Shown here in pieces: positions 4,498 through 22,729 of a DNA stretch of 26,886 bases. The DNA comes from Armatimonadota bacterium (GTDB lineage: Bacteria; Armatimonadota; Hebobacteria; CAIYQO01). The notes beneath the pieces were generated by a model. It was not told the origin of the DNA and searched no databases. It worked only from the letters and a program-made list of their open reading frames with translations. Made by a program: the position numbers and the translations under genes. Position 1 is the first letter of the stretch. Each line of letters starts with the position of its first letter. The stretch covers positions 1 to 26,886 of the forward strand of contig JBBRXO010000025.1 of the NCBI GenBank assembly GCA_038248345.1, written 5' to 3'.

Positions 4498-5566
4498 TGA
4501 GCGTCCGCCCATACGTCGTCGCCGCTCACCGTGGCGTATTTTCTTCGCACTCTTATGCGTGGCGGCCGGTGGCTGGTATGCCTGGCATACTGCCCCACCA
4601 GCGATAGATACCTACGAAGCGGCGCGGCGTGTTGAAATAACCAATACCGTCAGCCCGATGGTAGAAGCGCTGGAGCAGGAGATCAATCCGCCAAACCTCA
4701 AACCCGTCAGTAAGTTGCCGCAACTTACTACCGCTTTTTTTGAGGCCAATGATACGGTAGCCTACGTACGGCTATGGAATAACAAGGGCGAGATGCTCTG
4801 TGAGGTGTCGCGCCTGGATAGCAAGACGATACTAACCACACCGCAACTGCCGGATTTAGGTGCCCGGGACGCCTTCCGAATGGCGGTGGACTGGACGCAT
4901 GATGCCGAATGGCGCAAGCCGATCATTGATCTTCGCCCGCTACTTTTGGGGCAAAATAATCTATCTGATTCTCTGCTGGCAACGGTAGATTCCAAAACAA
5001 TCACTCCGAACACCCGGCTGGATCTGTATTTGCAACAACAGAGTATATACGACTCCGTTGACAAACAAGTGATCTTTTATCCAGAGCTACAAGTAGCCAC
5101 TGTGCCGATGAACTCAATATTGGAGCTACTGAGTGGCAAAGAAGATATCTCTAACATCCAAGCTGCCGTCGATTTGTCACAAACAGCAGAGACGACGCTC
5201 TCACTGGCGGTGGAGAACCGACGCCTGGTCTTCGACGAAACGGGCGCGTTGCCACAAAATCTAGCCGGGCAAGCACCGGCGGGGGGGATGCTCTCCGCAA
5301 TATGGACAGTGGTGAATGCGCGACGGGTGATGGCCCCCATCTTCGGCAACGCGTTTGGTGAAAATCCGATCCCCACCGCGGCTGTTGTTGAAATCGGAAG
5401 CTTCTCCCGCGCGTATGAATTGTGGCAGTCGGTAGTATTCGCTTGCTGGCCGTCGTTTATCGCGCTGTTGTTGTCCATCCTTTTCCTGGTCTGGCCACGG
5501 CACAAGACAAAGAAAGAAAAGGCCATGGAGAACTACGAAAACCCACCGTTTTCGTTTGAGAAATAA
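4460..5566 (+). CDS. Hypothetical membrane protein with two TM helices flanking a large extracytoplasmic domain
   Basis: RRRR followed by hydrophobic [17 protein letters not shown]-terminal [21 protein letters not shown] then a basic tail; GGAG at 4450 precedes ATG 4460 (start uncertain; overlaps trpB end). Confidence 0.7.
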
Positions 5567-6661: not shown

Positions 6662-8179
6662 TTACCCCCGTGCCCGCCACGTGTGCCAGGCAAAGAGGGC
6701 GCGCCACAGGAAAACCTGTCCCTGTCCCAAAATCTGCAACATGACACGTTTGGCGAACGGCACGCCCGCGCCAGTCTGATTATCCCAGAACATACGCGGC
6801 ACCCACTTGAAATTAATCTCGTAGGCGGTCTTAAATATCTGCCAGTGAACGCGGGAGAAATCGCGAGCGATAGGGGCGACAATATCATCCAACGGGGCGT
6901 AGAACATTGGAAAAACGGAGATGCGGTCATTTTTTAGTCGCTGTACCAGCGACATCGTCCGTGCCACATCTGCGGGCGTCTCCCCCGGTAATCCGAGTAC
7001 TAGGCTGACCATCGGGAAGAACCCTGCACGGCTTAATCTGTCCAGCTGTGCCACGCAGAAATCTTCCCATTGTTCCGGCGGGCAACTGCCCATCTTCGGC
7101 GCCCCGCCGTTCTTCTTCAGCAATTCGCCGGAGGCGGTCTCTACCCCCACGTTCACCCATGGGTAGTCGTGCTTCACTTCACCCACCAGCAGGTCATGCA
7201 CGGTGCGCAATTCGGCATCGCTGTAAGCGGCGATAGAGATGGCGTTGGCGTGGTCGATCTGGATCAGCTTCAGACCTTTTATGGTACGCAACTGGCGCAG
7301 CAACTCGATGAGCGCGCTCGGATTCACCTTCACTCCGGTCGCGCCGTAACGGAAGAAATCCTCGCTCAATGCAGCGATACTGGTATTCCCCGCCGCAATA
7401 TTGGTGTTCATATCCGATATTATCGTCGCAGCAGGCAAGTGGCGCATGGGCACACAAGCGATGGTGCAGAAGGAGCAACCGAGACCACAGCCACGGCTCA
7501 ACTCCACCACGCCCATGGTACTGGGGTGTGCGATAGCCGGGACATCCTCCGTCGCCACATTCTCCCCGGCGATCACGGGAGGCAACGGCTGTCCGGTCAG
7601 AATTTGTCGATATATCTGGGCGATGTTGCCCTCACAATAGCCAGCGATAATATGATTGATGCCAAGGACGGCCAACTGTTCCGGGTGATCCCGCAACTGC
7701 CAGGCCCCGGCTCCCCCCATGATCACCTTTGCCTCCGCCGCGCTGACGGCAATCTGACGTTGTACCGTGCGGAGCAACCGGCGAAACATCACTTGTGGAT
7801 AAATTTGCCCACCCATGATCCCCACCATAGTATTAGTGTTCATGCCCAGCCCCAGCGGCTCACCGGCAGCGATACCAACAATGCGCGTGTTCTCCCCGAT
7901 GGCCTCCGCCAGCTGGTCTTCATTCACTACGGCCACTTCATCTGCACTGAAGCCTCCCGCCAGCAACGCCGCCTCCACGCGGCGCAAGCCTAGCGGGGCA
8001 GTACGTGCGCGCCCGTCCGCTGTGTTCCGCGGTTGCGGCATCAATAGTGAATTCATTATCGGTGCCGGGGTGATAGTAGTTTGGCTAGCGGTGAGCATAC
8101 CATCAAAAAGGATATCGTAATCCGCCATCAACGAGCGATCAGCTGTCAGTACCACTAGATATCCGCCAGGTTTACGCAC
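6662..8179 (-). CDS. B12-binding-like domain radical SAM protein
   Basis: ELSRGCGLGCSFC (CxxxCxxC); N-terminal VIMGGAGAWQL; VNVGVETAS; LVLGLPGET; GTG start abuts the upstream stop. Confidence 0.9.
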   Translation of the reverse strand: MRKPGGYLVVLTADRSLMADYDILFDGMLTASQTTITPAPIMNSLLMPQPRNTADGRARTAPLGLRRVEAALLAGGFSADEVAVVNEDQLAEAIGENTRIVGIAAGEPLGLGMNTNTMVGIMGGQIYPQVMFRRLLRTVQRQIAVSAAEAKVIMGGAGAWQLRDHPEQLAVLGINHIIAGYCEGNIAQIYRQILTGQPLPPVIAGENVATEDVPAIAHPSTMGVVELSRGCGLGCSFCTIACVPMRHLPAATIISDMNTNIAAGNTSIAALSEDFFRYGATGVKVNPSALIELLRQLRTIKGLKLIQIDHANAISIAAYSDAELRTVHDLLVGEVKHDYPWVNVGVETASGELLKKNGGAPKMGSCPPEQWEDFCVAQLDRLSRAGFFPMVSLVLGLPGETPADVARTMSLVQRLKNDRISVFPMFYAPLDDIVAPIARDFSRVHWQIFKTAYEINFKWVPRMFWDNQTGAGVPFAKRVMLQILGQGQVFLWRALFAWHTWRARG

Positions 8180-8995
8180 TTATAATTCCTTCCGCGCGAA
8201 CTTCTCCAGGTCGTCGATCAAGTCATCAATTTCGTCGTTCTTCACCGCCACCGTCTCGGTAACCGGGCCACCACATTCGGGACAACACTCGGCACCCACG
8301 CTCCCCGGGCGCGCCAGCTGCCCGCACACCGGGCAGGCGATTTTGGTGCGGGTGTAATACATGCGCCGTGCCGCTGCGTCTGGCTGCATCAATAGACCGG
8401 GGGCACCGGCGATGGCTGCATCTTTGCGGTAATGCGGGAAGATTATCGCCCCTTGCGGGCAAATGCGGCTACATGCCGGGCAGCCAGGTTTGCATTTGTC
8501 CGGGTTAGCCACCAGAATACTCCCATCCTCAGCTTGCTCATAGACGCCGAAGAGGCAAAATTGCACACAATGTCCACAATCTATACACCGAGCGTAGTCC
8601 ACCACCGGGTACCAGCGCGGGGGCACGGCAAGCGTCCAATCCACCACATTGCCTGCCACCGCCCCCACTGCACAATATTCGCTTATGGAGTTGCACGCAT
8701 CCGCGGCGGTGGCATAGTCGGCAATATTCACCGCAATTAAGCCCGGCAACTGATGCCCCGCCAGCAACAATTGCGCTGGGCGCGGGTGCACATCGCTCAA
8801 CAACAGCACCGGGGTGGTGAGTTCATGCAACTGGCACCATATCGGAGCATCCGCCCCAATATCGTACAAGGATGGAATACGTACCACATTCACCCCGGCT
8901 GCAGCACAGCATTGCGCCACTGCCGCTTCCTGGCCAGCCAGCGGGCAATGCAGCTCAAGTGTCGATATTAATACTGTTCCACAAAGCGTAGCCAT
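8180..8995 (-). CDS. 2x[4Fe-4S] ferredoxin-domain protein with C-terminal Zn-ribbon-like motif
   Basis: [21 protein letters not shown] and [13 protein letters not shown]; later CPVCG...CCPECG; acidic tail. Confidence 0.85.
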
Positions 8996-9144
8996 AATAG
9001 TTGATGCTATAACAACACTTGCACGCCTATGTTGTCAAGGTGAAGATCAATATATTATCACCAACGCCGGTAATACTGTGAAAACATTGCAATAATACCA
9101 CCAGTGCAATACAATACTCACATGAGGATTGCTGGGAGGTAACC

Positions 9145-10626
9145 ATGCCTAAGGATTTGGAGCGCGAACTGAAATCGACCTCGCCAAAATTTATAAAGAA
9201 CCTGATTGCGATTGGCATTCCGTTCGCATTTACGATATTTGCTGGATTTCTGCTTTTTAATTGGATGACAAATGGGCATAAGCTGGACTTTAATATTATC
9301 CGACGGGATAAGTCCGCCGCTGCGTCTACCAATAATGGCGCTTCAGCCACCACGTCGGGGGCCGTCAACGGCACCGGTGATGTTGATAACAAATCCGGGC
9401 TGGTCACTACCTTCACGCCGGGATATGGAAAAGCGGCTAGCCTCCCGGGCGCGTGGCCACGCTACCGCGGGGAGAAATTCGACGGGATAAGCTATGAAAA
9501 CGTTCCCTTGGCGCGCAGTTGGCCCGCCGACGGCCCCAAGGCCCTGTGGACAATAGAGATGGGCGATGGGTATGCCGGGCCAGCGATTTCAAATGGACGG
9601 GTATATGTGCTGGATTACGATAATAAAATCAAAGGCGACGCGTTGCGCTGCCTGTCGCTTGATGACGGGGCGGAAATATGGCGGAGGTCATACCAAGTAG
9701 TAGTGAAGCCGAATCACGGAATGTCGCGTACTGTACCTGCCGTAACGGATAAATATGTTTTAACAATCGGCCCCATGTGCCAAACAATGTGTGTAAAGGC
9801 GGACAGCGGTGAATTCCTCTGGGGCATCGACCTGGTGAAAAATTACGAAGCCGAACCACCGCCGTGGTATGCCAGCCAATGCCCACTGATAGACGATGAT
9901 AAAGCTATTATCGCTCCCGGCGGCAAAGCGCTGATGATAGCAGTGGACTGCGCCACTGGCAAAGTACTCTGGGAGACCCCCAATCCAAAACGCTGGAGTA
10001 TGACGCACAGCAGTATCATTCCGATAACTATCGCGAATAAAAAAGCCTACCTTTACCCTGCCAGCGGCGGGATTATTGCCGTTGATGCTGCAGACGGAAA
10101 ATTGCTCTGGGATTATCCCGAATGGACGGTAAAGACGGCGAATGTGCCCATGCCGGTGGTAGTGGGCGAGAATCGCCTCTTCTTCTGTGGCGGCTATGAC
10201 GCCGGAAGTATGCTGGCGAAGGTCAGTACAGGTGGCTTGGTGGAGAGCTGGCGCAAACCGCAGGATGTCTTTGGGACGGATCAGATTACGCCGATTTTTT
10301 ACAATGGCTTCATCTACGGCACCCGGCATGGACAGGAGTTCGTCTGCCTTGATCTGGACGGAAATGTGAAGTGGCAATCTGGCAGCACTAACCGCTTCGG
10401 CCAGTACGGAGGGCCATACATCATCGCTGATGGGATGATATATGTCATGGATGACGCCGGGGTTCTCACTTTAATGGAAGCAAACCCGGAGAAATTCACA
10501 TCATTAGGTAGTTTCACCGCCTTTGCAAATGGTAAAGATAGTTGGGGACCGCTAGCTATCGCCGGAGGGCTTTTGATTGCACGGGATTATAACCGTATGA
10601 CCTGTTTCGATGTGGCACGACACTGA
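9145..10626 (+). CDS. Membrane-anchored PQQ-like (BamB-like) beta-propeller protein
   Basis: N-terminal TM, Ser/Thr/Gly linker, WPRYRG, repeated Trp-docking motifs (GAEIW, GEFLW, GKVLW, GKLLW, GNVKW); GGAGG RBS. Confidence 0.85.
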   Translation: MPKDLERELKSTSPKFIKNLIAIGIPFAFTIFAGFLLFNWMTNGHKLDFNIIRRDKSAAASTNNGASATTSGAVNGTGDVDNKSGLVTTFTPGYGKAASLPGAWPRYRGEKFDGISYENVPLARSWPADGPKALWTIEMGDGYAGPAISNGRVYVLDYDNKIKGDALRCLSLDDGAEIWRRSYQVVVKPNHGMSRTVPAVTDKYVLTIGPMCQTMCVKADSGEFLWGIDLVKNYEAEPPPWYASQCPLIDDDKAIIAPGGKALMIAVDCATGKVLWETPNPKRWSMTHSSIIPITIANKKAYLYPASGGIIAVDAADGKLLWDYPEWTVKTANVPMPVVVGENRLFFCGGYDAGSMLAKVSTGGLVESWRKPQDVFGTDQITPIFYNGFIYGTRHGQEFVCLDLDGNVKWQSGSTNRFGQYGGPYIIADGMIYVMDDAGVLTLMEANPEKFTSLGSFTAFANGKDSWGPLAIAGGLLIARDYNRMTCFDVARH

Positions 10627-11594
10627 TGAATTACGATCCTGAAGAAGAAGAAGAATCCAAAGTTTCGCGCCGATACGATTCAGTACTGGCTGGGGTTGTT
10701 GCCGTGGTGGTGCTGGCCGCGGTACTGATAATATCTAATATGAAGAAATCCGGCTTGCAGACCCCTCCACTGCCCACCGAGCGTGCCGCCAGCGTGGAAA
10801 ATGCCGCGCGGGGTTACCATGAGACAGATTCAATCCCCACCGGTTTTGCCGTACCTAGCGGTCTAGCCTTGGGCCTTAATGGTCAGCTCTTTGTAGTGGG
10901 CGATAAAGCGCTGCATATTATCAACGCGAATGGCGAGTATATTGAGCAAACACTGGATGGCAAACCCACTTGCGTAGCGTTGAGCAAGGACAATCTGCTC
11001 TACGTCGGCATGGGAGATCACGTGGTGGTGCTGGATAACTGCGGACGTTGGCAGGCAACATGGGACAGTCTACCCGAAGGTTCATTACTAACATCCATAG
11101 CAATACATGAGAATGATATCTGGGTGGCCGACGCGGGCATGAAGACTGTCCACCACTATGACAAAAAAGGGAATCTCCTCGGCGAACTGGGGAGTAAACT
11201 GGTGGTGCCCAGCCCGCATTTAGATGTGGCCGTGGCCACTGACGGGCGCGTATGGATCGTCAATCCGGGTATACACCGGCTGGAAGAGTACGGCGGCGTA
11301 GGAAACCTTTTGCGCAGTTGGGGCGTATTCAATGCGGAATTAGCTGGCTTCACTGGATGTTGCAACCCAACGGATTTCGCCTTCCTGCCCGACGGACGCT
11401 TCGTCACCGCCGAGAAAGGCATCGCACGGGTGAAGACCTACCAAACTGATGGCACGCTGGACGCGCTGGTGGCAGGGCCTGATGATTTCGCTCCCAGTGA
11501 TGTGGGGTTGGATTTGGCAACGGATGCCGGTGGACGCATATTTGTATTAGACCCATTAGCGCATAACGTGCGGATATTCTCCGCCAAACAATAA
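10626..11594 (+). CDS. Membrane-anchored NHL-repeat beta-propeller protein
   Basis: TM segment, then NHL-like repeats (PSGLAL, PTCVAL, IWVAD, DGRVWIVNPG, GRIFVLD); GCCNP motif; TGATG coupling. Confidence 0.8.
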   Translation: MNYDPEEEEESKVSRRYDSVLAGVVAVVVLAAVLIISNMKKSGLQTPPLPTERAASVENAARGYHETDSIPTGFAVPSGLALGLNGQLFVVGDKALHIINANGEYIEQTLDGKPTCVALSKDNLLYVGMGDHVVVLDNCGRWQATWDSLPEGSLLTSIAIHENDIWVADAGMKTVHHYDKKGNLLGELGSKLVVPSPHLDVAVATDGRVWIVNPGIHRLEEYGGVGNLLRSWGVFNAELAGFTGCCNPTDFAFLPDGRFVTAEKGIARVKTYQTDGTLDALVAGPDDFAPSDVGLDLATDAGGRIFVLDPLAHNVRIFSAKQ

Positions 11595-11603
11595 GGCGAG
11601 CAG

Positions 11604-11828
11604 ATGAGTGACGAGATAGATACCAAAAAACGGGAGTTTCTCCGCACGGCCGCGCGGACAGCGGTGCTCGGCGTCTTCGCCTTCGGCGTGGGGGCGCTAC
11701 TGACCCGGCACACGACTGAATGTACCGGTTCCTTCGCTTGTCGCCAATGCGGGGCATTGGACGGGTGCAAACTGCCGCAAGCAGAGGCTGCCTGGCAGGC
11801 GATACAGAAGGAATATGATGGCCGATAA
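11604..11828 (+). CDS. Small Cys-rich protein with Tat-like leader or membrane anchor
   Basis: KKREFL plus hydrophobic stretch, then C-x5-C-x2-C-x5-C; fits exactly between neighbouring operon genes. Confidence 0.7.
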   Translation: MSDEIDTKKREFLRTAARTAVLGVFAFGVGALLTRHTTECTGSFACRQCGALDGCKLPQAEAAWQAIQKEYDGR

Positions 11829-12396
11829 CGCTAAAAAAGATGTGGGGCTGAATCGCCGAGAATTCCTCACCGAGGCTATCCGGGCTGCCAGCCTGCTGGC
11901 GCTGGGTAGTACTATTGGCCTGCTCGCAACCAGCCGCGCCAGCGCCCGCGCCTCGGTCTGGCAGATTGACCCCTATAAATGTACCAACTGCGGCAAATGT
12001 GCCACCGAATGCGTGCTGCACCCTTCAGCTGTGAAGTGCATGCGCTCCTACAAAATCTGCGGTTATTGCGACATGTGCTTCGGTTTCTTTAAAGCCAATC
12101 CTGATGCCAAAGCTGAATCAGCCGAGAACGAACGCTGCCCGGTGGGCGCCATCCAACGCCGCAGCGTCGAGTATCCCTACTATGAGTATATGATCGACAC
12201 AGAAAAATGTATCGGCTGCGGCAACTGCACTGGTGGATGCAACGACTTTGGCAATGGCAGTATGTTCCTGCAGATCAGCCACGACATCTGTATGCACTGC
12301 AACCAATGCAGCATCGCCCGCGTCTGCCCACCGCAAGCCATCAGCCGGATCCCTGCAGATGTTGCGTATTTGAAGAAACCTCGGGAGAAGAAGTAG
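11815..12396 (+). CDS. Tat-exported polyferredoxin (NapG/MauM-like, probably four [4Fe-4S])
   Basis: NRREFL twin-arginine motif, h-region, ARA site; 17 Cys including CTNCGKCATEC, CGYCDMC, CIGCGNCTGGC, CMHCNQC...CP. Confidence 0.85.
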   Translation: MMADNAKKDVGLNRREFLTEAIRAASLLALGSTIGLLATSRASARASVWQIDPYKCTNCGKCATECVLHPSAVKCMRSYKICGYCDMCFGFFKANPDAKAESAENERCPVGAIQRRSVEYPYYEYMIDTEKCIGCGNCTGGCNDFGNGSMFLQISHDICMHCNQCSIARVCPPQAISRIPADVAYLKKPREKK

Positions 12397-12410
12397 GAAG
12401 TAGGTATGCA

Positions 12411-12536
12411 CCACCCCCCTAAGGAGGTGGCTAACAGCTGTAAGCGCCCTGAAGAGCGCTATCATTCGGAGCAGAAAAGTCCGCGAAGGCGGACGACCGG
12501 CGCGAATCGCCCTGCAGCCGGGACTTTGATCCCAGC
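12411..12536. repeat. Multi-hairpin REP-like intergenic element
   Basis: Four imperfect palindromes: 12411-12430, 12443-12460, 12479-12494, 12517-12536. Confidence 0.6.
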
Positions 12537-12584
12537 AGAAAATTTGCAAAATATAATAACCAGAGACCAGGAACATTACAATAA

Positions 12585-13883
12585 ATGCGCAAATTAATCC
12601 GATACCTAATAATATTGGCCATTCCTATTGTCACATTCGGGCAGGAGTATAACTTCACTTCGCCACCGCAGTTTAGCGATGGTATTAAACCGCAGTGGTT
12701 GCAGGAGTTTTATCCGGCTGTACGGGCGGAGTGGCTCACTTATCTGGATATTGCTCTGTTGTTGTTAGCGATGGGTGTCACCGCCTGGTTACTACTTAAA
12801 AAGCGCTCACGCAACGGGGTGTTTGTCGTCATGTTGCTGTCGCTCCTTTATTTTGGCTTCTATCGACACGGGTGTATCTGCTCTATCGGCGCCATCCAGA
12901 ATGTGGCGATGTCGATGTTCAATCCTTCCCAGGCGTTGCCCGTAGCGACGCTCATCTTTTTCCTCGCGCCACTGGTCTTTACGCTCTTCTATGGCCGGGT
13001 ATTTTGCGCGGGCGTCTGCCCACTGGGGGCGCTGCAAGACCTGGTGCAATTGAAACCACTACAGCTACCGCGCTGGCTTGAGCAGTCGCTGGGCATTATC
13101 CCTTTCATCTACCTGGGCCTCGGCGTCCTTTATGCCGCCACCGGTTCAGTCTTTCTTATCTGTCAATATGATCCTTTCGTCGCCTTCTTCCGGCTCTCTG
13201 GCACTTCTACCATGCTCATCGGCGGCGCTGTTATCCTCGCAATCGGCACAGTCGTGGGGCGTCCCTACTGCCGCTTCCTCTGCCCCTACAGCGCCCTGCT
13301 GCGGATACTCGGGCCATTAGCGCGTTGGCGAGTACGCATCACTCCTACCGAATGTATCCAATGCCACTTGTGTGCGGATGCCTGCCCATATAATGCTATC
13401 AATCCCCCCACGCCGGAGCCGACAGTGGGCAAACGCGCTGAGGGGAAAAAGCAGCTGGCGCTGCTACTGGTACTACTACCGATGCTGATCGTCGGCGGCA
13501 GCTATCTGGGACGGGCCGCCGCCCCAACGCTGGCGCAGCTTGACCGTACAGTATATACCGCGAACCTTGTGCGGCAGGAGATTCAACTGACAGGCCATAT
13601 CACCCGCAAGTCATATGAGACTTACGCCTATGCGCGAACCGGAAAACCGGCGAGTGACATCTATAAACAAGCGGCGGATATCCACGCCAAATTCCTGCTT
13701 GGCAGCACTATTCTCGGCGGATATCTTGGGCTAGTTTTCGGCGCTACTCTCCTCGGCCTGGCCATTCGCCGCCGCCGTGTTGATTATGAAACCGACCCTG
13801 CACGTTGCCTCGCCTGTGGACGTTGCTATGATTCCTGCCCTTTCTCACATGTGGAGACTACGCCGGATGAGGTGTCACCATGA
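12585..13883 (+). CDS. Polytopic membrane 4Fe-4S binding protein (NapH/MauN/YccM-like)
   Basis: Multiple TM helices; GRVFCAGVCPLG and RPYCRFLCPY (CxxxCP); GCICSIG; ferredoxin motifs CIQCHLCADACP and CLACGRCYDSCP. Confidence 0.88.
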   Translation: MRKLIRYLIILAIPIVTFGQEYNFTSPPQFSDGIKPQWLQEFYPAVRAEWLTYLDIALLLLAMGVTAWLLLKKRSRNGVFVVMLLSLLYFGFYRHGCICSIGAIQNVAMSMFNPSQALPVATLIFFLAPLVFTLFYGRVFCAGVCPLGALQDLVQLKPLQLPRWLEQSLGIIPFIYLGLGVLYAATGSVFLICQYDPFVAFFRLSGTSTMLIGGAVILAIGTVVGRPYCRFLCPYSALLRILGPLARWRVRITPTECIQCHLCADACPYNAINPPTPEPTVGKRAEGKKQLALLLVLLPMLIVGGSYLGRAAAPTLAQLDRTVYTANLVRQEIQLTGHITRKSYETYAYARTGKPASDIYKQAADIHAKFLLGSTILGGYLGLVFGATLLGLAIRRRRVDYETDPARCLACGRCYDSCPFSHVETTPDEVSP

Positions 13884-15796
13884 CGGTTAAATTGATCACG
13901 CACAAAACCGATGAGGAGATCGCTCGCGCCTGGTATCAGGCGGCATTACGCCTCGCTATCCTCGCCGCCCTCATCAGCATCATCGGAGGCATTATGCTTG
14001 GGCAGGCCTGGACACAGAAAAAAAACAATGATCCGTTTCGTAATAAGCAGATTACTGGCCTGGTAATGCAATTGAGTAAGGAACAGGATCCGGCAAAAAA
14101 GGATATCCTGATCGAGCAAATTCGCCGAAAAGATGTTGAGGTGAACCGAGAATTCCGCAAAGCGGAGTCGTTTATCCATTCTGGCATTTACTTGCTGCTG
14201 GGTAGTCTGGCGATATTTGTTTTGGGTGCCAGAGTTGCCGTCCACTACCGCGAAAAGCTACCGGTGCCACAACATAAATCGCGCGATAACATCTGGATTT
14301 CCGCGGGGGTAAGCCGCCGGGCGGTGATAATGCTGGGCGTGTTACTCATTGGGGTGGCGTCTATCATAGTGGCCAAATCTCCCGGTGACCCCTTCGCCAC
14401 GTTAGCGCTGATATCATCGGGCAATATGGCCATGCCGGAGAAAGGATCACCCGCCAACTCCGCCACAGTCACCGCCGCCTTGCCCGGCTCTGCTACCATC
14501 GGCTCCGCCGCCTCTGCGGCTACTGTTTTCGTAGATCGCTGGCTGCCGGCTATCGAAGTGCCGGGGCTGGCCACCGGCAGCAACGGCGATGCCCTGCACA
14601 ACTGGCCTTCATTTCGTGGGCCGCTAGGCACCGGCGTAACCTTCGAGGCCACACCACCTTTCAGCTGGGACGCAGCAACCGGGGAGAATATCCTCTGGAA
14701 AGTGCCCGTCGATTTACCCGGCATGTGCTCACCCATCGTGTGGGGAGATAAAGTCTTCCTCGCTGGCGCCACTGAAGATAAGCGTGAAGTCTATTGCTAC
14801 AACGGTACTACGGGTACGCTACTCTGGAAAAAAGAAGTATCCGCTGGAGATAATGAACCGAAAGAAAAGCCATCTGTCTTCGCAGATACCGGCTTCGCCG
14901 CGCCCACCATGGCCACCGACGGTAACCTGGTCTATGCTATCTTCGCCAACGGTGATATCGCCGGATTTGATTTGGATGGTAACCAGAAATGGGTCAGAAA
15001 TCACTGGGGCATTCCCAGCTCCTACTATGGTTATTCCTCCTCACTACTCCTCTATCGTAACCGACTAATAGTGCAGATGGATCAGGACTTAACGGACAAA
15101 AGCGAAGTTGAAATCCCACGAAATATCTCCTGCCTGGATGGCAGCACCGGAGCAATTGTGTGGACAACAGCACGCCCGCCTGACGCCGGGAACACCTGGT
15201 CCTCACCGATTCTGATCAATACCGGCACGCGAGAAGAGATCATCACTGCCGGCCGCCCTTATGCAATTTCTTATGATCCGCTGACGGGTGCGGAACTATG
15301 GCGCGCGAACTGCCTGGGAGGCGATGTCGGCCCCTCGCCGATATACGCAGGTGGGTTAGTCTTTGTTGCTGAAGAAAGCGAGAAGCTCTCCGCTATCCGC
15401 CCCGGTGGAAGTGGCGATGTAACTAAAAATATCGTCTGGCAAGCGGAAGATGACCTGCCAAACACTGTCAGCCCGGTGAGTAATGGCGACCTGCTCTTCA
15501 TCACTTCCGGTGAAGGAAAGATCTCCTGCTATGATGTAGCCACTGGTAAGCAATATTGGCAGCACACATTCGGAAATGCTAGCGCCTACTCTTCACCCGT
15601 GCTGGTGCGCAACAGCATCTTCTATACCAATCGCGATGGAAACACCTACATCTTCCCCGCTGAACGTACCTTCAGTGAGGATCAAGTGAGAACTAATGTC
15701 ATCAAAGATACTATCGACGCCTCCATGGCAGTGGTGGGTGGAAGAATTTACCTGCGCGGTAAGGAGACACTCTACTGCATTGGCGCGAAACCGTAA
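13880..15796 (+). CDS. PQQ-like beta-propeller protein with three N-terminal TM helices
   Basis: Three hydrophobic segments, Ala/Ser linker, NWPSFRGP, repeated ENILWK/GTLLW/GNQKW/GAIVW/GAELW/GKQYW and SSP motifs; ATGA overlap with upstream gene. Confidence 0.85.
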   Translation: MTVKLITHKTDEEIARAWYQAALRLAILAALISIIGGIMLGQAWTQKKNNDPFRNKQITGLVMQLSKEQDPAKKDILIEQIRRKDVEVNREFRKAESFIHSGIYLLLGSLAIFVLGARVAVHYREKLPVPQHKSRDNIWISAGVSRRAVIMLGVLLIGVASIIVAKSPGDPFATLALISSGNMAMPEKGSPANSATVTAALPGSATIGSAASAATVFVDRWLPAIEVPGLATGSNGDALHNWPSFRGPLGTGVTFEATPPFSWDAATGENILWKVPVDLPGMCSPIVWGDKVFLAGATEDKREVYCYNGTTGTLLWKKEVSAGDNEPKEKPSVFADTGFAAPTMATDGNLVYAIFANGDIAGFDLDGNQKWVRNHWGIPSSYYGYSSSLLLYRNRLIVQMDQDLTDKSEVEIPRNISCLDGSTGAIVWTTARPPDAGNTWSSPILINTGTREEIITAGRPYAISYDPLTGAELWRANCLGGDVGPSPIYAGGLVFVAEESEKLSAIRPGGSGDVTKNIVWQAEDDLPNTVSPVSNGDLLFITSGEGKISCYDVATGKQYWQHTFGNASAYSSPVLVRNSIFYTNRDGNTYIFPAERTFSEDQVRTNVIKDTIDASMAVVGGRIYLRGKETLYCIGAKP

Positions 15797-15807
15797 GGAT
15801 AGGAAGA

Positions 15808-18192
15808 ATGACGACCACGTTAGATAAAAACAGCGCCCCGACGGACGTCATCGACCTGTCTTTTGTCGATGAGATAGTTGCGCGTATCGGGTGTACCCCT
15901 GACAAGTCTATCCCGCTGCTACAGGCGCTGCAGGAGCATTACCGCTACCTGCCCCAGCCCGCCATGGAGCGTATCTGTGCAATCACGGAGATCACCCCGG
16001 CAGCGATATCCGGCGTGGCCAGCTTCTATACACAGTTCCGGCACTTGCCTATGGGCCAGCACCTGGTGAGCGTTTGCCACGGCACCGCCTGCCACGTGAA
16101 GGGCGCACCGCTAATCAGCGAGACGCTAGCGCGCACCTTGCATATTGCTGAAGGGGAAGATACTGACCCCGATGGCGTCTTCACCATACAGAAGGTCGCC
16201 TGCCTTGGTTGCTGCACGCTGGCACCGGTAATGCAGATTGATGGTGTCACCTATGGTCACCTCACCAGCGAGAACGTGCCACGCGCACTACAGGATTTCC
16301 TCCACCTGGCAAAATCCGGCGCGCTGGGGCAAGCCGCCGATGATTTCATTCCGGGCGCGAATGGTATGGCGGAGATCCGCATCGGCGTTGGCTCCTGCTG
16401 TATCGCCGGTGGCTCGATGAAAGTACGCGATGAGCTGGAGACCGCTATCCACGAGGTAGGGGCGGATGTGGCCATTAAACCGGTGGGGTGCGTGGGCATG
16501 TGCCATCAGACTCCGCTGGTGGAAGTGGTGATGCCAACAGGCAAAAGCACCATCTACGCCAAGGTGCAACCGGACGACGCGGCGGAGATCATCCACCGAC
16601 ACTTCCAGCCCAAGGGGCTGCTGCGCAAATTATCACTCTCACTCTCGAAGCGACTGAGCAATATCCTCACCGATGAAGCATGGGAGCCGGTGACGCGCTA
16701 TGCCATTGATGTGCGCGACGCCCCGGTCTGCGCCTTCCTCGGTGAGCAGAAGCATATCGCCACAGAGCTGAGCGGGGCGCTGGATCCGCTGGATCTGGAC
16801 GCCTATATCGCCGCCGACGGTTTCGTCGCGCTGCGCAAAGTGCTGGACGAGGGCAAACCGGAGCAGGTGATTGCCGAAGTGAAGGCCAGCGGCCTGCGCG
16901 GACGCGGGGGCGCGGGCTTCAGCACCGGCACCAAGTGGGAGCTGGTACGGGCTGCCAAAAGTGAGCATAAATATGTGGTAATGAACGGCGATGAAGGCGA
17001 TCCTGGCGCCTTCATGGATCGCATGTTGCTGGAATCCTACCCCTACCGCGTGCTGGAGGGGCTGGCCATCGCCGCCTTCGCCATCGGCGCGCATGAGGGC
17101 GTGCTCTACATCCGCGCGGAGTATCCGCTGGCCGTACAACGCATCCGCGAAGCGATCCGCATCCTGGAGGCTGCTGATATCATTGGAAATAAGCTGATGG
17201 GTAAGACTTACCCACTGAAGTTGACGGTCATGGAGGGTGCCGGGGCCTTCGTGTGTGGTGAGGAAACGGCGCTGCTCGCCAGCATCGAGGGGAAACGCGG
17301 TATGCCGCACTTGCGGCCACCTTATCCCGCCGTCAAAGGATTGTGGGGGCTGCCAACGCTCATCAACAACGTAGAATCTTTTGCGCTAGTCTCTTGGATC
17401 ATTCGCCATGGAGCGACGGCCTTCGCCACGCTAGGCACAGAAAAGAGCAAGGGGACGAAAGTCTTCGCACTGGCGGGCAAAGTCGTCCGCGGCGGCCTCA
17501 TCGAAGTTCCCATGGGGATGACATTACGGCAGATAGTCACAGATATCGGCGGCGGTGTTCCCGACGGCGAGACGCTGAAGGCGGTGCAGATCGGCGGGCC
17601 TTCTGGTGGCTGCTTGCCCGCCCACCTGCTCGACATCCCGGTGGACTACGAAGCGTTGAACTCAGTGGGAGCTATCATGGGTTCGGGCGGGCTGGTGGTG
17701 TTGGATGGACACGACTGCATGGTGGATATGGCGCGCTATTTCCTGCAATTCACCCAAGAGCAATCTTGCGGCAAATGCACCTACTGCCGTATTGGCACCA
17801 GACGCATGCTCGATATATTGGAACGTATCTGCATTGGTAAGGGAAAGACCGGCGACCTGGAGAAGCTGGAAGAGTTGGCCCACATGGTGAAACACGGCAG
17901 TATTTGCGGCCTGGGGCAGACCGCCCCCAACCCGGTTCTCACCACATTACACTACTTCCGCGAGGAATATCTGGCGCACCTGGCAGGAAAATGCCCGGCA
18001 GGCAAGTGCAAAGAGCTGATTCATTACCGCATCACCGACGACTGTATCGGCTGCACCAAATGCGCGCAGGTGTGCCCAGTAGATGCCATCCCCATCGCTC
18101 CATACCAGATTCATGTGGTGGATGATGAAAAATGTACGCGCTGCGACAGTTGCCGCAGCGTCTGCCCGACTAATGCGATTGTGATTGAGTGA
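15808..18192 (+). CDS. NuoE-NuoF (HydC-HydB / BfuC-BfuB-like) fusion, NADH:FMN Fe-S subunit
   Basis: VCHGTAC...CLGCC [2Fe-2S]; second thioredoxin-like domain GSCC...GCVGMC; GLRGRGGAGF, NGDEGDPGAFMDR, FVCGEETAL, GGPSGGC, SCGKCTYCRIG...ICGLG; C-terminal 2x[4Fe-4S]. Confidence 0.93.
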   Translation: MTTTLDKNSAPTDVIDLSFVDEIVARIGCTPDKSIPLLQALQEHYRYLPQPAMERICAITEITPAAISGVASFYTQFRHLPMGQHLVSVCHGTACHVKGAPLISETLARTLHIAEGEDTDPDGVFTIQKVACLGCCTLAPVMQIDGVTYGHLTSENVPRALQDFLHLAKSGALGQAADDFIPGANGMAEIRIGVGSCCIAGGSMKVRDELETAIHEVGADVAIKPVGCVGMCHQTPLVEVVMPTGKSTIYAKVQPDDAAEIIHRHFQPKGLLRKLSLSLSKRLSNILTDEAWEPVTRYAIDVRDAPVCAFLGEQKHIATELSGALDPLDLDAYIAADGFVALRKVLDEGKPEQVIAEVKASGLRGRGGAGFSTGTKWELVRAAKSEHKYVVMNGDEGDPGAFMDRMLLESYPYRVLEGLAIAAFAIGAHEGVLYIRAEYPLAVQRIREAIRILEAADIIGNKLMGKTYPLKLTVMEGAGAFVCGEETALLASIEGKRGMPHLRPPYPAVKGLWGLPTLINNVESFALVSWIIRHGATAFATLGTEKSKGTKVFALAGKVVRGGLIEVPMGMTLRQIVTDIGGGVPDGETLKAVQIGGPSGGCLPAHLLDIPVDYEALNSVGAIMGSGGLVVLDGHDCMVDMARYFLQFTQEQSCGKCTYCRIGTRRMLDILERICIGKGKTGDLEKLEELAHMVKHGSICGLGQTAPNPVLTTLHYFREEYLAHLAGKCPAGKCKELIHYRITDDCIGCTKCAQVCPVDAIPIAPYQIHVVDDEKCTRCDSCRSVCPTNAIVIE

Positions 18193-18231
18193 GGCTGGGA
18201 GCGCACGCTTCCAGTACGATAGAGTGAAAAA

Positions 18232-19776
18232 ATGCCAACCATAACCATAGATAATAAACCGGTAACCGTCGCTGACGGCACTACCATCCTTGACGCGGCC
18301 ACGCAACTGGGGATTGCTATCCCCACGCTGTGCTACCTGCGTGGCGTCTGCTCGCCCACCTCGTGCCTGGCGTGCGTGGTGAAGGTGAATGGGCGTGCGC
18401 GGCTGGTGCCCGCTTGCGCCACCGCAGTTGCCGAGGGCATGGTGGTGGAGAGTAGCAGCGAGGAAGTGCAGAAGTCGCGCCGGATGGCACTAGAGCTGCT
18501 GCTCAGCGATCACCTGGGCGACTGCGTGGGGCCGTGCCAGAGCATCTGCCCTGCCCACATGGATATCCCCACCATGATCCGCCAGATAAACGCCGGCGAC
18601 CTGCGCGGCGCGGTGGTCACGGTGAAGGAGCGCATCCCCTTCCCCGCCACGCTGGGGCGCATCTGCCCGGAGATCTGCGAGAAGGGCTGCCGCCGGGTGC
18701 AGCAGGACAGCGCCGTCTCCATCTGCAAGCTGAAGCGCTTCGTCGGCGATACTGACCTAGCCACCGGCAAACCGTACCAACCCGCCTGCCGCCCGGCCAC
18801 GGGCAAGAAGGTGGCAGTTATCGGCGCTGGCCCGGCGGGGCCGTCCGCCGCCTATTATCTGCTGCGTCAGGGGCACGCGGTGGCGGTGATCGATGCGCAC
18901 AAAGACGCGGGCGGCAACCTGCGCTACGGCGTGCCGGAGGCGAAGCTGCCCCGCACGGTGCTGGATGACGAGATCAAACTAATCGTGCAACTGGGCGCGC
19001 AGCTCCGCCTCGGTGAGACGGTGAGCAACCTGAAACAACTGACCGACGCCTTCGATGCTGTGCTGCTGGCTGCCGGGGAGTTGACGCCCGACGCCATCAA
19101 ATCCCTGGGGCTGAGCGGCGCGGGCAAGGGTGTGAAGGTGGACAAAGCCACACTACAGACGAGTATCCCCGGGGTCTTCGCCGCCGGCAGCGCGGTCACC
19201 TCCAGCCAGCACGCGGTGCGTGCGGTGGGGTCGGGCTACGCGGCGGCGCGCTCCATCGGCCTCTTCCTCACCGGCGCCTACGCGCTGGAGGACGACCGCC
19301 CCTTCACCGTACACATCGGCAAACTGCACGAGTGCGAAGTGGCGGAGTTTATGGTAGATATCAGCCCGGCGGCCCGCGTGGAACCGAAAGGCGACGGCTT
19401 CACCGCCGCCGAAGCGGTAGCCGAGGGTGAGCGCTGCATGAAATGCGACTGCCTGAAGGTGAAAGACTGCGCCTTCCGCCAGGTGTGCGCCGACTACGAC
19501 GCCGACACCGCCGCCTTCCGTGGCGAACGCCGCGAGTACCGCCGTGAGCTCACCCACCCGGAGGTCGTCTTTGAGCCCGGCAAGTGCATCGCCTGTGGCC
19601 GCTGCATGGCCATCACCGAACGCGCCAAAGAACCGCTAGGCCTCACCTTCATCGGCCGCGGCTTCACCGTGCGCACCGCAGTCCCCTTCAGCGAGTCCCT
19701 CCGCGCCGGCCTGACGAAAGTGGCGCTGGAATGCGCCGACGCCTGCCCTACGGCGGCGCTGGCACGAAAGAAGTGA
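18232..19776 (+). CDS. HydA/NuoG-N-terminal Fe-S domain with inserted GltD/NfnB-like FAD module (no NAD(P)H domain, no catalytic domain)
   Basis: IPTLC...SCLACVV...PAC [2Fe-2S]; SDHLGDC; PCQSICP...GRICPEICEKGC; VIGAGPAG; TSIPGVFAAG; RCMKCDC...C; KCIACGRC; CADACPTAAL. Confidence 0.88.
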   Translation: MPTITIDNKPVTVADGTTILDAATQLGIAIPTLCYLRGVCSPTSCLACVVKVNGRARLVPACATAVAEGMVVESSSEEVQKSRRMALELLLSDHLGDCVGPCQSICPAHMDIPTMIRQINAGDLRGAVVTVKERIPFPATLGRICPEICEKGCRRVQQDSAVSICKLKRFVGDTDLATGKPYQPACRPATGKKVAVIGAGPAGPSAAYYLLRQGHAVAVIDAHKDAGGNLRYGVPEAKLPRTVLDDEIKLIVQLGAQLRLGETVSNLKQLTDAFDAVLLAAGELTPDAIKSLGLSGAGKGVKVDKATLQTSIPGVFAAGSAVTSSQHAVRAVGSGYAAARSIGLFLTGAYALEDDRPFTVHIGKLHECEVAEFMVDISPAARVEPKGDGFTAAEAVAEGERCMKCDCLKVKDCAFRQVCADYDADTAAFRGERREYRRELTHPEVVFEPGKCIACGRCMAITERAKEPLGLTFIGRGFTVRTAVPFSESLRAGLTKVALECADACPTAALARKK

Positions 19777-20916
19777 TCATTTACGTTTAAAGATTGCCTT
19801 AAATAGATTGCCATCCTTGTCATCGACAAACTCAAGCGAAAGAAATGCCTCAAGCGCTCGTATAATCCCAGAGCCATACTCACGATAAGGCAATATCTGA
19901 TTGGCGAAGGACGCCAATATTGGATTACGAGCGTTGGAGTTGCCCGCTTTGATGTTATCAATCGTTAAGTTATTGGGCAAGTGTCCGGGGCTGATAATTT
20001 CCACACGGTCTTCAAAGATAAATACACGAATGGGAGCTGAGATGAAATAGTCCCTATGCACCAGGGCATTAGCGACAATTTCTTCCAGCGCTATCCGGGG
20101 AATTTCCGGTTTCCCTACACTATTTACCGTCTGGTCTCCCTGTACATGATTTATATTCGCATTAATGAAGCTGATCGTCTGCTGAAAGATATCAGCGATT
20201 TTCCCGGTAATATCCCGGTTATCTAGGTATACATCTGTAGCGATACTACGACCGGGGAAACAGACAGCTTTCACAATAAACATATGCAAGCGTAATGATG
20301 GTTGCCGGGCGAATAAAAGAGCGCCAGTAACATTCAATACGCCATCACGGCCTAAATTCATGTTTTCAATTATCTGCTCTAATGGCAATTGTTGCTCATC
20401 GAGAGATTCACTATATCTCTGCTGAAAATAGCCACGAAAATAATCCATATCAAGGTCAGCGATGGTCAGCCCGTTTGCTGGATATTCATCCCCATGTACC
20501 AGACCGGACGCTTGGAAAAGCCGCTGAATCTCCTCACGAGAAGTAGCCTTTCTTTTATCGGAGCCGCTCTTAACCCAAAACACGCCATTTTTGTCCTGGT
20601 AGGGCTTATTTATGCCAGCGGTAACGCTGATAACCAGTACAATGCCATGATCAGTAGCGACATTCTCCGTGATGGGATTGATCGGTGGCTGTACCTGCTG
20701 GCTAGATATCAGTTGATTCAACCTGCGCACATCATCAGTTGCCAAACCAGAGATATTGCCCTCGTCGGTAACGCCAATAAAAATCTGCCCGCCACTACCA
20801 TTACTAAAAGCCACCATATCGGCGCATAAGGAATCGGCATTAGTGACATCCTTCTTGAATTGATGCTCACTGTCCTCACCCAGCGCCAAAATGGTGAGAA
20901 GTTCTATGGTCTCCAT
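19777..20916 (-). CDS. Schlafen/AlbA_2 domain + RecG-C-like ATP-binding protein
   Basis: LGEDSEHQFK, VAFSNGSGGQIFIGV, EIVANALVHRDY, DRVEIISPG, RNPILAS; start overlaps the upstream stop by 13 nt. Confidence 0.88.
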   Translation of the reverse strand: METIELLTILALGEDSEHQFKKDVTNADSLCADMVAFSNGSGGQIFIGVTDEGNISGLATDDVRRLNQLISSQQVQPPINPITENVATDHGIVLVISVTAGINKPYQDKNGVFWVKSGSDKRKATSREEIQRLFQASGLVHGDEYPANGLTIADLDMDYFRGYFQQRYSESLDEQQLPLEQIIENMNLGRDGVLNVTGALLFARQPSLRLHMFIVKAVCFPGRSIATDVYLDNRDITGKIADIFQQTISFINANINHVQGDQTVNSVGKPEIPRIALEEIVANALVHRDYFISAPIRVFIFEDRVEIISPGHLPNNLTIDNIKAGNSNARNPILASFANQILPYREYGSGIIRALEAFLSLEFVDDKDGNLFKAIFKRK

Positions 20917-22729
20917 ATGCTATAAATCTCCTTGCGACGCTTGAAAGCGTCATCGCCACCTTCCATGATGTCAATAATGGTCTGTTGTTGATTCTTATCG
21001 TCTATACCACCACTTTGCACTGATATTTTATCATCCATATCGGTACATGCGTGAATTTGCTCCGCATCGCCCAGCACCGGAATATTCGGATTATGAGTCG
21101 CGAATATGAATTGTACATCAGGTTTCATCTCGCGTACCAGCTTGATTACATCTTCATAAATAGTCTGGTTGTCCAGATCATCTTCGGGCTGGTCAATAAT
21201 AATCACGTCATTATTGCGCTGGCTGAGTATAAACAGAATCAATGCCGATGCCCGCTGGCCTAGCGAGTGATGCTGTAGCTCTTTGCCACGATACGATAAG
21301 GTAAATAAATTCGGTGTCTGGTATGTCAGTAGCGCTTTCAAATTATTATTGTTACTGGATGAATATCCGGGGAAGTTGCGAAGGTCATCTTCATGTTTCG
21401 ATAAAAACTCGGATAGATCAGCTACAAAATCATCTACCAAGCCAATGCCTTTATTCATGGTTCGGTTATCGTTATCAAAACTTAGGCGTTTAGCTAGCTT
21501 CTCCTCTATGTCGTGATCTCGATATATTTTTAACCGATGTTCCGAATTCAGCTTAATATCGGTTTATGCAGCACCGTCTCACGAATAGAAACACCTGGCT
21601 GTAATATATCGGCAATATATACGGCAGAACTAATATCTCCCAAAATCCGTCGTATCTCATAAGGTTGACGATTACGATCTCGCGCCTTTATAACAACCTT
21701 GCCGCCACTGCCCATGGTGTAGCGGACTAGTTCCTGCTTGTATTTTTGATCGATAGACTTTTCGCCAAAAGGTATCTCCAATACGTAGCGCAACACTTCC
21801 AGTATCGATGACTTTCCGCTCCCGCGAATTCCAATCAAGGTATTCAACTCAGGAGAAAAACGGACTGTTTCGCCATCCAAGGTTCCACCTTCAAAGCTGA
21901 TACTTTCGATGTTTGAGTGCTTAGTTGCCGGCACACCCTTAGTAACACGATTTGCATAGTCAGTTAAAGCAAATTTCACCGCTTCAAAGGTAAAAGCACC
22001 GACTTTCAAGTAGCGCTCCTCACCCTTCCCTATCCCTTCAATAGACTTAGGATCAGAGCCTTCAACCTCTGCCGGGTACCAATCTCCTAACCATTTTTTC
22101 ACCTGGGTACGTCTATAGTCCGAACGAACCTTCTGGAAGCCTAGTGTTCGCTCTCGCACGGTAGCATAACTCGCATTCTTCCAGTCACCTAGCTTTCCGC
22201 CATGGGTCTCTTCCCATAACCCTTTGCTATCTTCGACATGGGCAAACACCATGAAGTAATCACGGCCATCACGGCAGATCTTATCAGCTTCTTCGACCAA
22301 CTTCAGAATATTACAGTCTGTTCGTCCATTGCTATTTTGGAATTGTTGCAGGGTATCTGGGCATATTTTCGTTAAAAATATACTAATATAATCGCTATCA
22401 TTTTTCAGCCATTGCTCGCTAAACACGAGCAATATGTGAATCCCATTAGCGCCATCATTAACAGATAGTTCAACGCCGGGGAGCAGGTAGATGTCTTTAT
22501 TCTTTGCCGTTTTATGCAATGCGACGAATTCATCTTTGTCAAACTTATTGTGGTTGGTAATCACCCCAATGCGAATATTAGCCTTTACCAGAGCATCAAC
22601 ATACGCGCTGGTGTAATAATTCACATCTCCGGGGTAGGAAAACTCTTTATCTACCTTCGTATGCAGGTGAAAATCTGCGCGAAGCCAGGAAGCGCCATAT
22701 TGAAATATATCCAGATGATTAGCATTCAT
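20904..22729 (-). pseudogene. PHP-domain + ABC/AAA-like ATPase (TrlF/Ppl-like), frameshifted and internally deleted
   Basis: 5' ORF 22729-21548 has PHP motifs (DFHLHT, ITNHN, GVE, AHVE, GSD) and Walker A GIRGSGKS; 3' ORF 21458-20904 has signature SLGQR, Walker B IIIIDQPEDDLD and H-loop ATHNPN in a different frame. Confidence 0.82.

Follow-up and report, generated by a model that had tools for sequence, protein, structure and literature searches.

A putative haem-free trans-membrane electron conduit with a bifurcating-type NADH/ferredoxin module encoded in an Armatimonadota bacterium

Organization of the operon

The window analyzed here is a 26,886-nucleotide stretch of DNA from an Armatimonadota bacterium (GenBank assembly GCA_038248345.1, contig JBBRXO010000025.1, positions 1 to 26,886 of the forward strand). 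This contig, termed C25, belongs to a 2.98-Mb genome that is 95.7% complete. An operon of eight co-oriented genes, which a first-pass annotation by a model had read as an envelope-spanning redox operon, is located at 9145-19776, and all eight genes are found on the + strand. These genes, termed A to H, are as follows.

9145-10626, +, gene A: membrane-anchored PQQ-like/BamB-like beta-propeller, 493 residues
10626-11594, +, gene B: membrane-anchored NHL propeller, 322 residues
11604-11828, +, gene C: 74-residue protein with four conserved Cys
11815-12396, +, gene D: twin-arginine polyferredoxin
12585-13883, +, gene E: membrane Fe-S protein like NapH and the C-terminal part of NosR
13880-15796, +, gene F: three-helix anchor and PQQ-like propeller, 638 residues
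15808-18192, +, gene G: BfuC-BfuB (NuoE-NuoF/HydC-HydB) fusion
18232-19776, +, gene H: BfuA, NfnA/StnC-like, with the NADP domain deleted

The intergenic distances from A to H are −1, +9, −14, +188, −4, +11 and +39 bp. The gene order is identical in the nearest relative, a record titled Armatimonadota, in which E is 79% identical. The labels given to the genes by the first-pass annotation are upheld by Pfam and NCBIfam, which assign A and F to the PQQ-like propellers, B to the NHL repeats, D to the polyferredoxins E to Fer4_5, G to NuoE and NuoF in fusion, and H to Fer2_4, Fer4_20 and Pyr_redox. An H-cluster, NiFe, molybdopterin or haem subunit is not detected in the operon when the window proteins are matched to the Pfam and NCBIfam families, and the sole CxxCH motif of the operon (residue 257 of E) falls within a ferredoxin motif. 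In NfnA/StnC, the counterpart of the GltD-like part of H provides the catalytic NADP(H) site. The claim that the operon has no recognisable catalytic subunit stands, because the NADP domain is deleted from this part of H.

Cytoplasmic module encoded by genes G and H

G consists of an N-terminal PF01257 domain, followed by PF01512, PF10531 (below the cut-off), PF10589 and Fer4. Its best matches in the PDB are 8oh5_B, 9bov_B and 9n5u_B (E<=3e-205), which are the B subunits of Stn/Nfn. G has an FMN/NAD site and ligands for the C1, B1, B3, B4 and B2/B5 sites. Of the 52 G sequences, 51-52 retain the Cys ligands of C1, B1, B3 and B4, and all 52 retain the four Cys of C1. According to PMC12018979, FMN-C1-B1 is the bifurcation site, B3/B4 form the path to ferredoxin, and the mid-potential path is FAD-A7-A6-A3-A2-A1-B1.

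H is homologous to residues 1-672 of NfnA/StnC and is without the C-terminal domain of NfnA (~500 residues). The alignment of H to 9bov_A is in two blocks and skips ~140 residues, which we take to be the NADP-binding domain, with GGGNxA as its motif in GltD-like proteins. The NADP motif is present in none of the 51 H orthologues. The A1, A2 and A3 ligands are retained in all of them, the FAD-binding glycine motif in 49-51 and the Lys ligand K168 in 41, and A6/A7 are kept. The ligand position of the cluster that we take to be A4 is A, T or S in 51/51, so that this cluster is lost. When the H frames covered end to end are compared (n=62, some genomes being counted twice), the FAD arm is present and the NADP domain absent in 56, five are shorter than 400 residues and have no FAD arm, and one still has a degenerate NADP domain. 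In four divergent genomes, H and G are fused, and only A1, A2 and A3 of H are left. This reduction series, in which first the NADP domain and then the FAD arm is lost, marks the conserved part of H as a predicted wire that ends at A3, and not as an active site. Because the NADP domain is absent and H is shrunk in some lineages to a three-cluster wire, H probably contains no catalytic site for a third substrate. The partner of H is likely to be the NapH-like membrane protein E.

Membrane and exported proteins encoded by genes A to F

A contains PF13360 (E 3e-24) and a single N-terminal hydrophobic anchor at residues 16-41, and has no match in the PDB at E<=0.001. His191, Arg195, Gln245, His288 and Gln380 of A are conserved within the subfamily, as counted by alignment column over 55 sequences. 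F also contains PF13360 (E 2e-27), has a three-helix anchor by hydropathy, and most closely, if weakly, matches tetrathionate hydrolase in the PDB (E 6e-8). A and F are 20% alike, and both have conserved polar residues. Both propellers are predicted to face outward. They score 19.4 and 31 bits, respectively, against TIGR03075, below its cut-off of 480 bits. PqqC gave no match in the host genome, and none in the control genomes either. In four Bacteroidales loci (L059, L067, L080 and L047), propeller paralogues, three to five in tandem, lie upstream of A.

B (PF01436) contains vicinal cysteines in a CCNP motif at residues 245-248. This motif is present in 64/64 aligned sequences, in 42 of which it is extended to CGCCNP, and the Cys-Cys pair is also retained in five short forms of 210-270 residues. 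It is a candidate for an outward redox or metal site. A search of the ESM Atlas for look-alikes of B and of an E homologue gave unnamed clusters only.

C has an RR-like N-terminus, a hydrophobic stretch and a C-x5-C-x2-C-x5-C motif, the four Cys of which are kept in 28/28 sequences. A C-like motif lies close to B/D in 65 of 71 loci, and in L004 C and D form a single fused protein. D has 16 Cys in 72/72 sequences, which corresponds to four predicted [4Fe-4S] clusters, and a 17th (Cys75) in 66/72. An RRx-hydrophobic twin-arginine motif is present in all 74 D sequences, an RRx motif is present in 25 of 31 C sequences, and TatC is encoded in the host genome. The twin-arginine (Tat) label of C and D stands at the level of the motif only.

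E (PF12801, E 5e-15) has ~7 hydrophobic segments and 15 Cys that are invariant in 30/30 sequences. It contains two CxxxCP motifs, a GCxC motif, Cys193 and a 2[4Fe-4S] domain that is interrupted by a helix hairpin. When the sides are placed from hydropathy and basic loops, the cytoplasmic side would hold the interrupted 2[4Fe-4S] domain together with the two CxxxCP motifs, and the outer side would hold Cys97, Cys99 and Cys193. The PDB matches of E span the ferredoxin motifs only, and the membrane part is not covered by any solved structure.

Comparison with known systems

G resembles NfnB/StnB joined to the C subunit, and H resembles residues 1-672 of NfnA with A1, A2, A3, A6/A7 and the FAD motif, when they are compared with NfnABC/StnABC (9bov, 9n5u and 8oh5). 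In contrast to these enzymes, G joins the C and B subunits in one chain, H is without the NADP domain, A4 and the ~500 C-terminal residues and can do without its FAD arm, and both genes are tied to those of membrane and exported proteins. A plain NfnABC enzyme, in which H would be the catalytic NADP subunit, is ruled out by the deletion of the NADP domain.

G+H shares with the BfuABC family of PMC9304861, which includes Type 3 and membrane-bound Mbh-/Nuo-Bfu enzymes, the BfuBC core and the A1-A3 clusters of BfuA, and is likewise open to extra subunits at A3. The features that define the family are present, namely BfuB with FMN, SLBB, NADH 4Fe-4S and C-terminal ferredoxin domains, BfuC, and BfuA with 2Fe-2S and 4Fe-4S clusters, and so are the B1, C1, B3 and B4 ligands that bifurcation requires. 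On these features G+H is assigned to the Bfu family as a module nearest to NfnABC/StnABC, that is, a Bfu enzyme as defined in PMC9304861 and not an Nfn enzyme. It does not belong to the FeFe-, NiFe- or Fdh-Bfu enzymes, since no such catalytic family is present in the window or recurs in the 80 loci examined. Unlike the third-substrate modules named in the excerpts of PMC9304861, that of the present operon would consist of a NapH-like protein, an exported polyferredoxin and a propeller. BfuB clades 1-17 are left unassigned in that paper, and G may belong among them.

E resembles NapH/MauN in its two CxxxCP motifs and 2[4Fe-4S] domain, and is encoded adjacent to a twin-arginine polyferredoxin, as in NapGH/MauMN. 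However, E scores 44.5 and 41.8 against NapH and MauN cut-offs of 234 and 213, and D scores 20.4 and 19.8 against NapG and MauM cut-offs of 269 and 179, respectively. Moreover, E has more helices than NapH/MauN and a split ferredoxin domain, the operon includes a cytoplasmic NADH module and no known terminal enzyme, and neither a quinone prenyltransferase nor an enzyme with molybdenum-bis(pyranopterin guanine dinucleotide) (Mo-bisPGD) is found in the host. Unlike the flavinylated NapH-like systems of PMC8238504, the operon has no FMN-binding domain or ApbE, neither being matched by Pfam among the 23 window proteins. A and F share PQQ-like propeller repeats with PQQ alcohol dehydrogenases, BamB and tetrathionate hydrolase, but they are membrane-anchored, score far under the enzyme cut-offs and have no identified cofactor site. 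By these comparisons the operon is not classified as a member of the Nfn, NapGH or PQQ dehydrogenase systems. In its predicted mode of action it resembles a Bfu module to which a pair like NapGH has been added. The literature searched, which left most subscription papers out of reach, contains no description of this operon, and no such cluster appears in the excerpts of PMC11406978.

Conservation and joint inheritance

Relatives of E were searched with an alignment of 30 of the 120 listed E homologues. They are encoded in at least 591 stretches of a species-level genome collection, mainly from Planctomycetota, Armatimonadota, Verrucomicrobiota and Bacteroidota. The neighbourhood counts rest on the best 80 of these stretches, and because the loci were picked by likeness to E, close forms are favoured.

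When at least 7 kb is available downstream of E (n=51), F is present in all 51 loci and G+H in 47. When at least 4.5 kb is available upstream of E (n=53), D is present in 53, B in 52 and A in 46. All of A, B, D, E, F, G and H are present in 32 of the 40 loci with room on both sides. Trees of 41 sequences share 25/38 splits between E and H, 22/38 between E and G, and 20/38 between G and H, compared with at most 3 when the labels are shuffled (at most 1 for E and H). Congruence of this kind shows that the genes are inherited together; it does not show that they co-evolve specifically. The first-pass annotation had proposed that the operon encodes a separate complex linking cytoplasmic NAD(H)/ferredoxin to the membrane and outer face. 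This proposal is partly supported, in that the two halves co-occur elsewhere (47/51 loci with room) and are co-inherited, in that no known catalytic subunit recurs in the 80 loci, and in that the FeFe hydrogenases of the host have BfuBC genes of their own. It missed the larger ABC/GT4/propeller/terpenoid context described in the next section.

E is also encoded in a cultured bacterium, Novipirellula herctigrandis (L034). Its G+H genes (L167:4257-14221) lie near genes for a 2-oxoacid:ferredoxin oxidoreductase and biotin synthase. D and E alone, with no propellers or G/H nearby, are encoded in G392 (L152:12374-14425). L035 and L056, which are records titled Bifidobacteriaceae, carry a form that groups with Verrucomicrobiota sequences (L035 in the tree), and their labels may be wrong.

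Association with a larger envelope system

The genes that recur next to the operon encode an 1100-residue FtsX-type permease with its ATPase, which form an ATP-binding cassette (ABC) system, a GT4 protein with an N-terminal CxxC motif, and more propellers. A second recurring group, the terpenoid cassette, encodes a ferredoxin, a radical SAM enzyme, a fusion of DUF116 and polyprenyl synthase, a prenyltransferase-fold protein and a DxDD cyclase. The cassette is split in the host, where its first two genes lie in the window and the remainder on contigs C9, C24 and C69. The two genes are as follows.

8180-8995, −, ferredoxin-domain protein of the terpenoid cassette, with Fer4 matches, divergent from the operon
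6662-8179, −, radical SAM protein of the terpenoid cassette, with PF04055, TIGR04013 below the cut-off and weak matches to B12-binding families

An orthologue of the ferredoxin gene lies inside 11 of the 80 operon loci, and this gene heads the cassette in some relatives. The operon and cassette are contiguous in G003, L042, G140, G093, G191, G051, G284, G358, G376, G340, G394 and G346, and in five divergent genomes the genes of the cassette, the operon and the ABC system follow one another in the same orientation. The cyclase of the host contains a DGDDT sequence (DxDD motif), and in relatives the cyclase gene adjoins that of the DUF116-polyprenyl synthase. DUF116 is a predicted metal-binding domain (PMC5898192), and is drawn beside a cyclase in the figure legend of a preprint (10.1101/2025.11.21.689855). 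The cyclases are similar to the class II cyclases termed 'SHC-like' (PMC7306690, PMC12414744) in the DxDD motif, the adjoining polyprenyl synthase and the PVC/Bacteroidota hosts, a likeness that is by description and not by tree. The function of these cyclases is stated to be unknown in both papers, the excerpts of which mention no ABC/GT4/propeller block or redox operon.

Among 151 genomes of Planctomycetota, E is present in 18, prenyl synthase in 39, GT4 in 44 and the radical SAM enzyme in 10. GT4 accompanies E in 17 of its 18 carriers and prenyl synthase in 13, while 37 of the 39 prenyl synthase carriers have GT4 and 8 of the 10 radical SAM carriers have E. Either GT4 or prenyl synthase is present in 18/18 E carriers, compared with 28/133 of the other genomes. 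H is detected in at least 11 of the 151 genomes, 10 of which also hold E. This number is a lower bound, because 10 candidates were scored per genome and the cut-off misses the short forms of H. In the phylum to which G045 (a Verrucomicrobiia record) belongs, E is present in 20 of 201 genomes, GT4 in 18 and both in 14; of the six E-positive, GT4-negative genomes, five have the cassette adjacent and one has D and E only. Among 41 relatives of the host genome, E is present in 13 (12 strong matches and one partial), prenyl synthase in 10 and both in 9.

The ABC permease is found in 5/5 genomes tested, so that the ABC/GT4/propeller block is a tighter partner of the operon than the cassette. The possibility that the cassette is obligatory is weakened by several near-complete carriers without it. 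The gene neighbourhoods identify the operon as a predicted block of a larger ABC/GT4/propeller system, which is often joined to an SHC-like terpenoid cassette. This envelope system appears to export, and often to make, an isoprenoid lipid.

Alternative module in oxidase-bearing carriers

A different block of genes lies next to GT4/ABC genes in carriers without the operon. It encodes a DUF3311 protein, a solute symporter, an AMP ligase, an aldehyde-dehydrogenase-like (ALDH-like) protein, an Fe alcohol dehydrogenase, a HemN-like radical SAM protein, a thioesterase, a PaaK-like ligase and a flavoprotein of the halogenase/GGR superfamily, together with a small protein that we presume to be UbiC-like. 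This block (L184:4973-17899; L170-L189) is a conserved uncharacterised cluster that is present in 29 of the 151 Planctomycetota.

The 46 Planctomycetota that carry GT4 or prenyl synthase divide into 15 with E alone, 26 with the ALDH-like marker alone, three with both and two with neither, G and H being located at a contig edge in one of the latter. Thus, 26 of the 28 carriers without E hold the alternative module. Neither E nor the marker is present in the other 105 Planctomycetota. COX1-superfamily genes are present in 29/29 marker-positive genomes (26/26 of those with the marker only), compared with 3/15 genomes with E only, and E is present in 12 of the 13 carriers that lack COX1. The family used for this count, PF00115, also includes nitric oxide reductases. 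The marker is rare in the phylum of G045 (3/201), and all three genomes are GT4-positive and one is E-positive. D is not found in five genomes with the alternative module, in a search without a positive control. The split between the two modules suggests that the operon is an oxygen-independent version of one step.

Redox enzymes of the host genome

Three FeFe hydrogenases are encoded in the host genome, each accompanied by BfuBC genes of its own. There are also two NiFe-family loci, which lie in separate clusters. A Mo-bisPGD enzyme, RnfD/NqrB, COX1 and cytochrome bd are not found in this 95.7% complete assembly. A quinone prenyltransferase is not found in it either, and its sole UbiA-family match is of the decaprenyl-phosphate phosphoribosyltransferase type, so that the wire is intact in a host without a sign of quinones. 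In another locus of this genome (L086:6699-9818, contig C3), HydB forms a fusion with a complete GltD-like FAD/NAD(P) domain, as in sub-type I of PMC11406978.

Possible role of the operon

We infer the topology, the contacts between the proteins, electron bifurcation by G+H and the direction of electron flow from these genes as follows. G+H would exchange electrons with NADH and ferredoxin. H, with the NADP site lost, would act as a wire of A1-A2-A3, its FAD arm being dispensable, and would hand electrons over to E at the 2[4Fe-4S] domain on the cytoplasmic side. The Cys-ligated sites that E has on its two faces would carry them across the inner membrane to the exported polyferredoxin D, with C, from which they would reach an outward site on one of the anchored propellers, for which the Cys-Cys pair of B is the most plausible candidate. 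The direction is most likely outward, with a reductant of approximately −400 mV being generated by confurcation of NADH and reduced ferredoxin. This reductant would drive a redox step of the FtsX-type ABC/GT4/propeller system, which in most carriers also has an SHC-like isoprenoid cassette, and the operon would be the version of this system used by anaerobes.

We put at roughly even the chances that the operon encodes a haem-free, quinone-independent trans-membrane electron conduit that serves an ABC/GT4/isoprenoid envelope system. A more specific proposal is tentative, and we hold it to be rather less probable than its negation. It states that a bifurcating NADH/ferredoxin module docked on a haem-free, quinone-free wire powers a Cys-Cys propeller enzyme, which catalyzes an oxygen-independent step toward an SHC-like product, and that this step is otherwise covered by the flavoprotein/aldehyde-dehydrogenase module in oxidase-bearing bacteria.

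Several observations weigh against the conduit and its proposed role. A divergent form of G is without the B5 cysteines and one B2 ligand. The membrane half is without adjacent G/H in 4/51 loci, and also in G089, G371 and G392; G+H of N. herctigrandis are located ~95 kb from the membrane half, and no H orthologue is found in G045. Prenyl synthase is not found in 5/18 E-positive Planctomycetota, nor in G005, G007, G009 and G015, the cyclase is not found in five E-positive genomes (in a search without a positive control), and no partner gene is found in 10/30 loci of at least 20 kb. The Fisher values overstate the strength of the association, the related genomes not being independent. COX1-family genes are present in 6/18 E-positive Planctomycetota, so that the operon is not confined to anaerobes. 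Finally, the alternative modules differ in chemistry and compartment, and the split between them may merely track lineage.

The same wire may run inward. A, B or F would then be a new periplasmic dehydrogenase, acting for example on an aldehyde or alcohol group, and electrons would pass via D-E-H to NAD+/ferredoxin; such a flow could also feed a radical SAM enzyme. We consider this unlikely. PMC8238504 links NapH-like proteins with PQQ alcohol oxidases in 172 genomes, the alternative module of oxidase-bearing carriers includes aldehyde-/alcohol-dehydrogenase-like genes, A has conserved His, Arg and Gln residues, and the best, though weak, PDB match of F is a catalytic propeller, all of which are consistent with an inward flow. 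However, A and F reach 19 and 31 bits against the 480 bits of the PQQ alcohol dehydrogenase cut-off, ferredoxin can be reduced only by a donor of around −400 mV or lower (Table 1 of PMC9304861), and no known low-potential cofactor site is found.

The absence of adjacent G/H genes from several genomes with the membrane half is also what would be expected if the operon encoded two co-regulated, separate units, in which G+H supplies reduced ferredoxin to the radical SAM/DUF116 proteins of the cassette and A-F function apart. The cassette does include a ferredoxin and a radical SAM enzyme. This arrangement is quite improbable, because H, having no NADP site, would need a docked partner to have a third substrate, G+H lies beside the cassette without A-F nearby in none of the sampled loci, and 10 of the 11 H-positive Planctomycetota (a count of at least 11/151) hold E.

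E belongs to PF12801, some members of which are probably linked to quinol (PMC8238504), membrane-bound Bfu enzymes have been predicted (PMC9304861), and some carriers respire. E might therefore interact with quinol, as proposed for NapH, in a respiratory or energy-conserving complex that couples NADH/ferredoxin to the quinone pool. This is doubtful and has a low probability, because neither a quinone prenyltransferase nor a terminal oxidase is detected in the host (95.7% complete), the operon has no ion-translocating subunit by Pfam, and the tie to ABC/GT4/terpenoid genes would be left unexplained. That the catalytic subunit has its gene at another site in the genome is very improbable, because, although FeFe hydrogenases (three) and NiFe-family loci (two) are present in the host, the former each have their own BfuBC and the latter lie in clusters of their own, no Mo-bisPGD enzyme is found, and no known catalytic subunit recurs in the 80 loci.

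If the outward conduit is correct, the Bfu family would gain an undescribed third-substrate arm that leaves the cytoplasm, and low-potential electron transfer across the inner membrane would occur in a fermenter without quinones or cytochromes. The operon also provides a concrete redox gene set tied to SHC-like cyclases, the product of which is an open question of geochemical interest according to two papers (PMC7306690, PMC12414744). The oxygen-linked swap of modules allows a direct comparison, in which the two groups of carriers would be expected to have lipids with a common core, with a possible difference in a single redox step.

Other features of the window

The remaining features at the operon are the following.

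12409-12541, no strand, dispersed ~135-bp repeat in the D-E gap, outside the conserved system
8996-9144, both strands, intergenic region between divergent genes, with sigma70-like matches on the + strand (9087-9115) and the − strand (9082-9054)

The 188-bp gap between D and E contains the ~135-bp repeat, which gives blastn matches of 80-88% on dozens of contigs of the same genome. It is structured (fold z −2.4), and is absent from the same place in the nearest relative, L001. It resembles a miniature inverted-repeat transposable element (MITE) or a repetitive extragenic palindromic (REP) sequence and is inserted within the operon. The sigma70-like matches between the cassette genes and the operon are matches to a consensus, which do not amount to evidence of function.

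Downstream of the operon, an AlbA_2/HATPase gene (19777-20916) is located beside a TrlF-family AAA ATPase gene (20904-22729, −) that is in two frames of 393 and 184 residues. These frames match profile positions 2-386 and 771-943, the middle being absent, and are likely to represent a broken defence gene. A secreted peptidase C25 (gingipain-family domain) with a propeptide is encoded at the start of the contig (393-2234, +). A 372-residue protein encoded at 4448-5566 (+), which has no match in Pfam or NCBIfam, overlaps the end of trpB, and the pair of trpB and this gene is also present in the relative G007.

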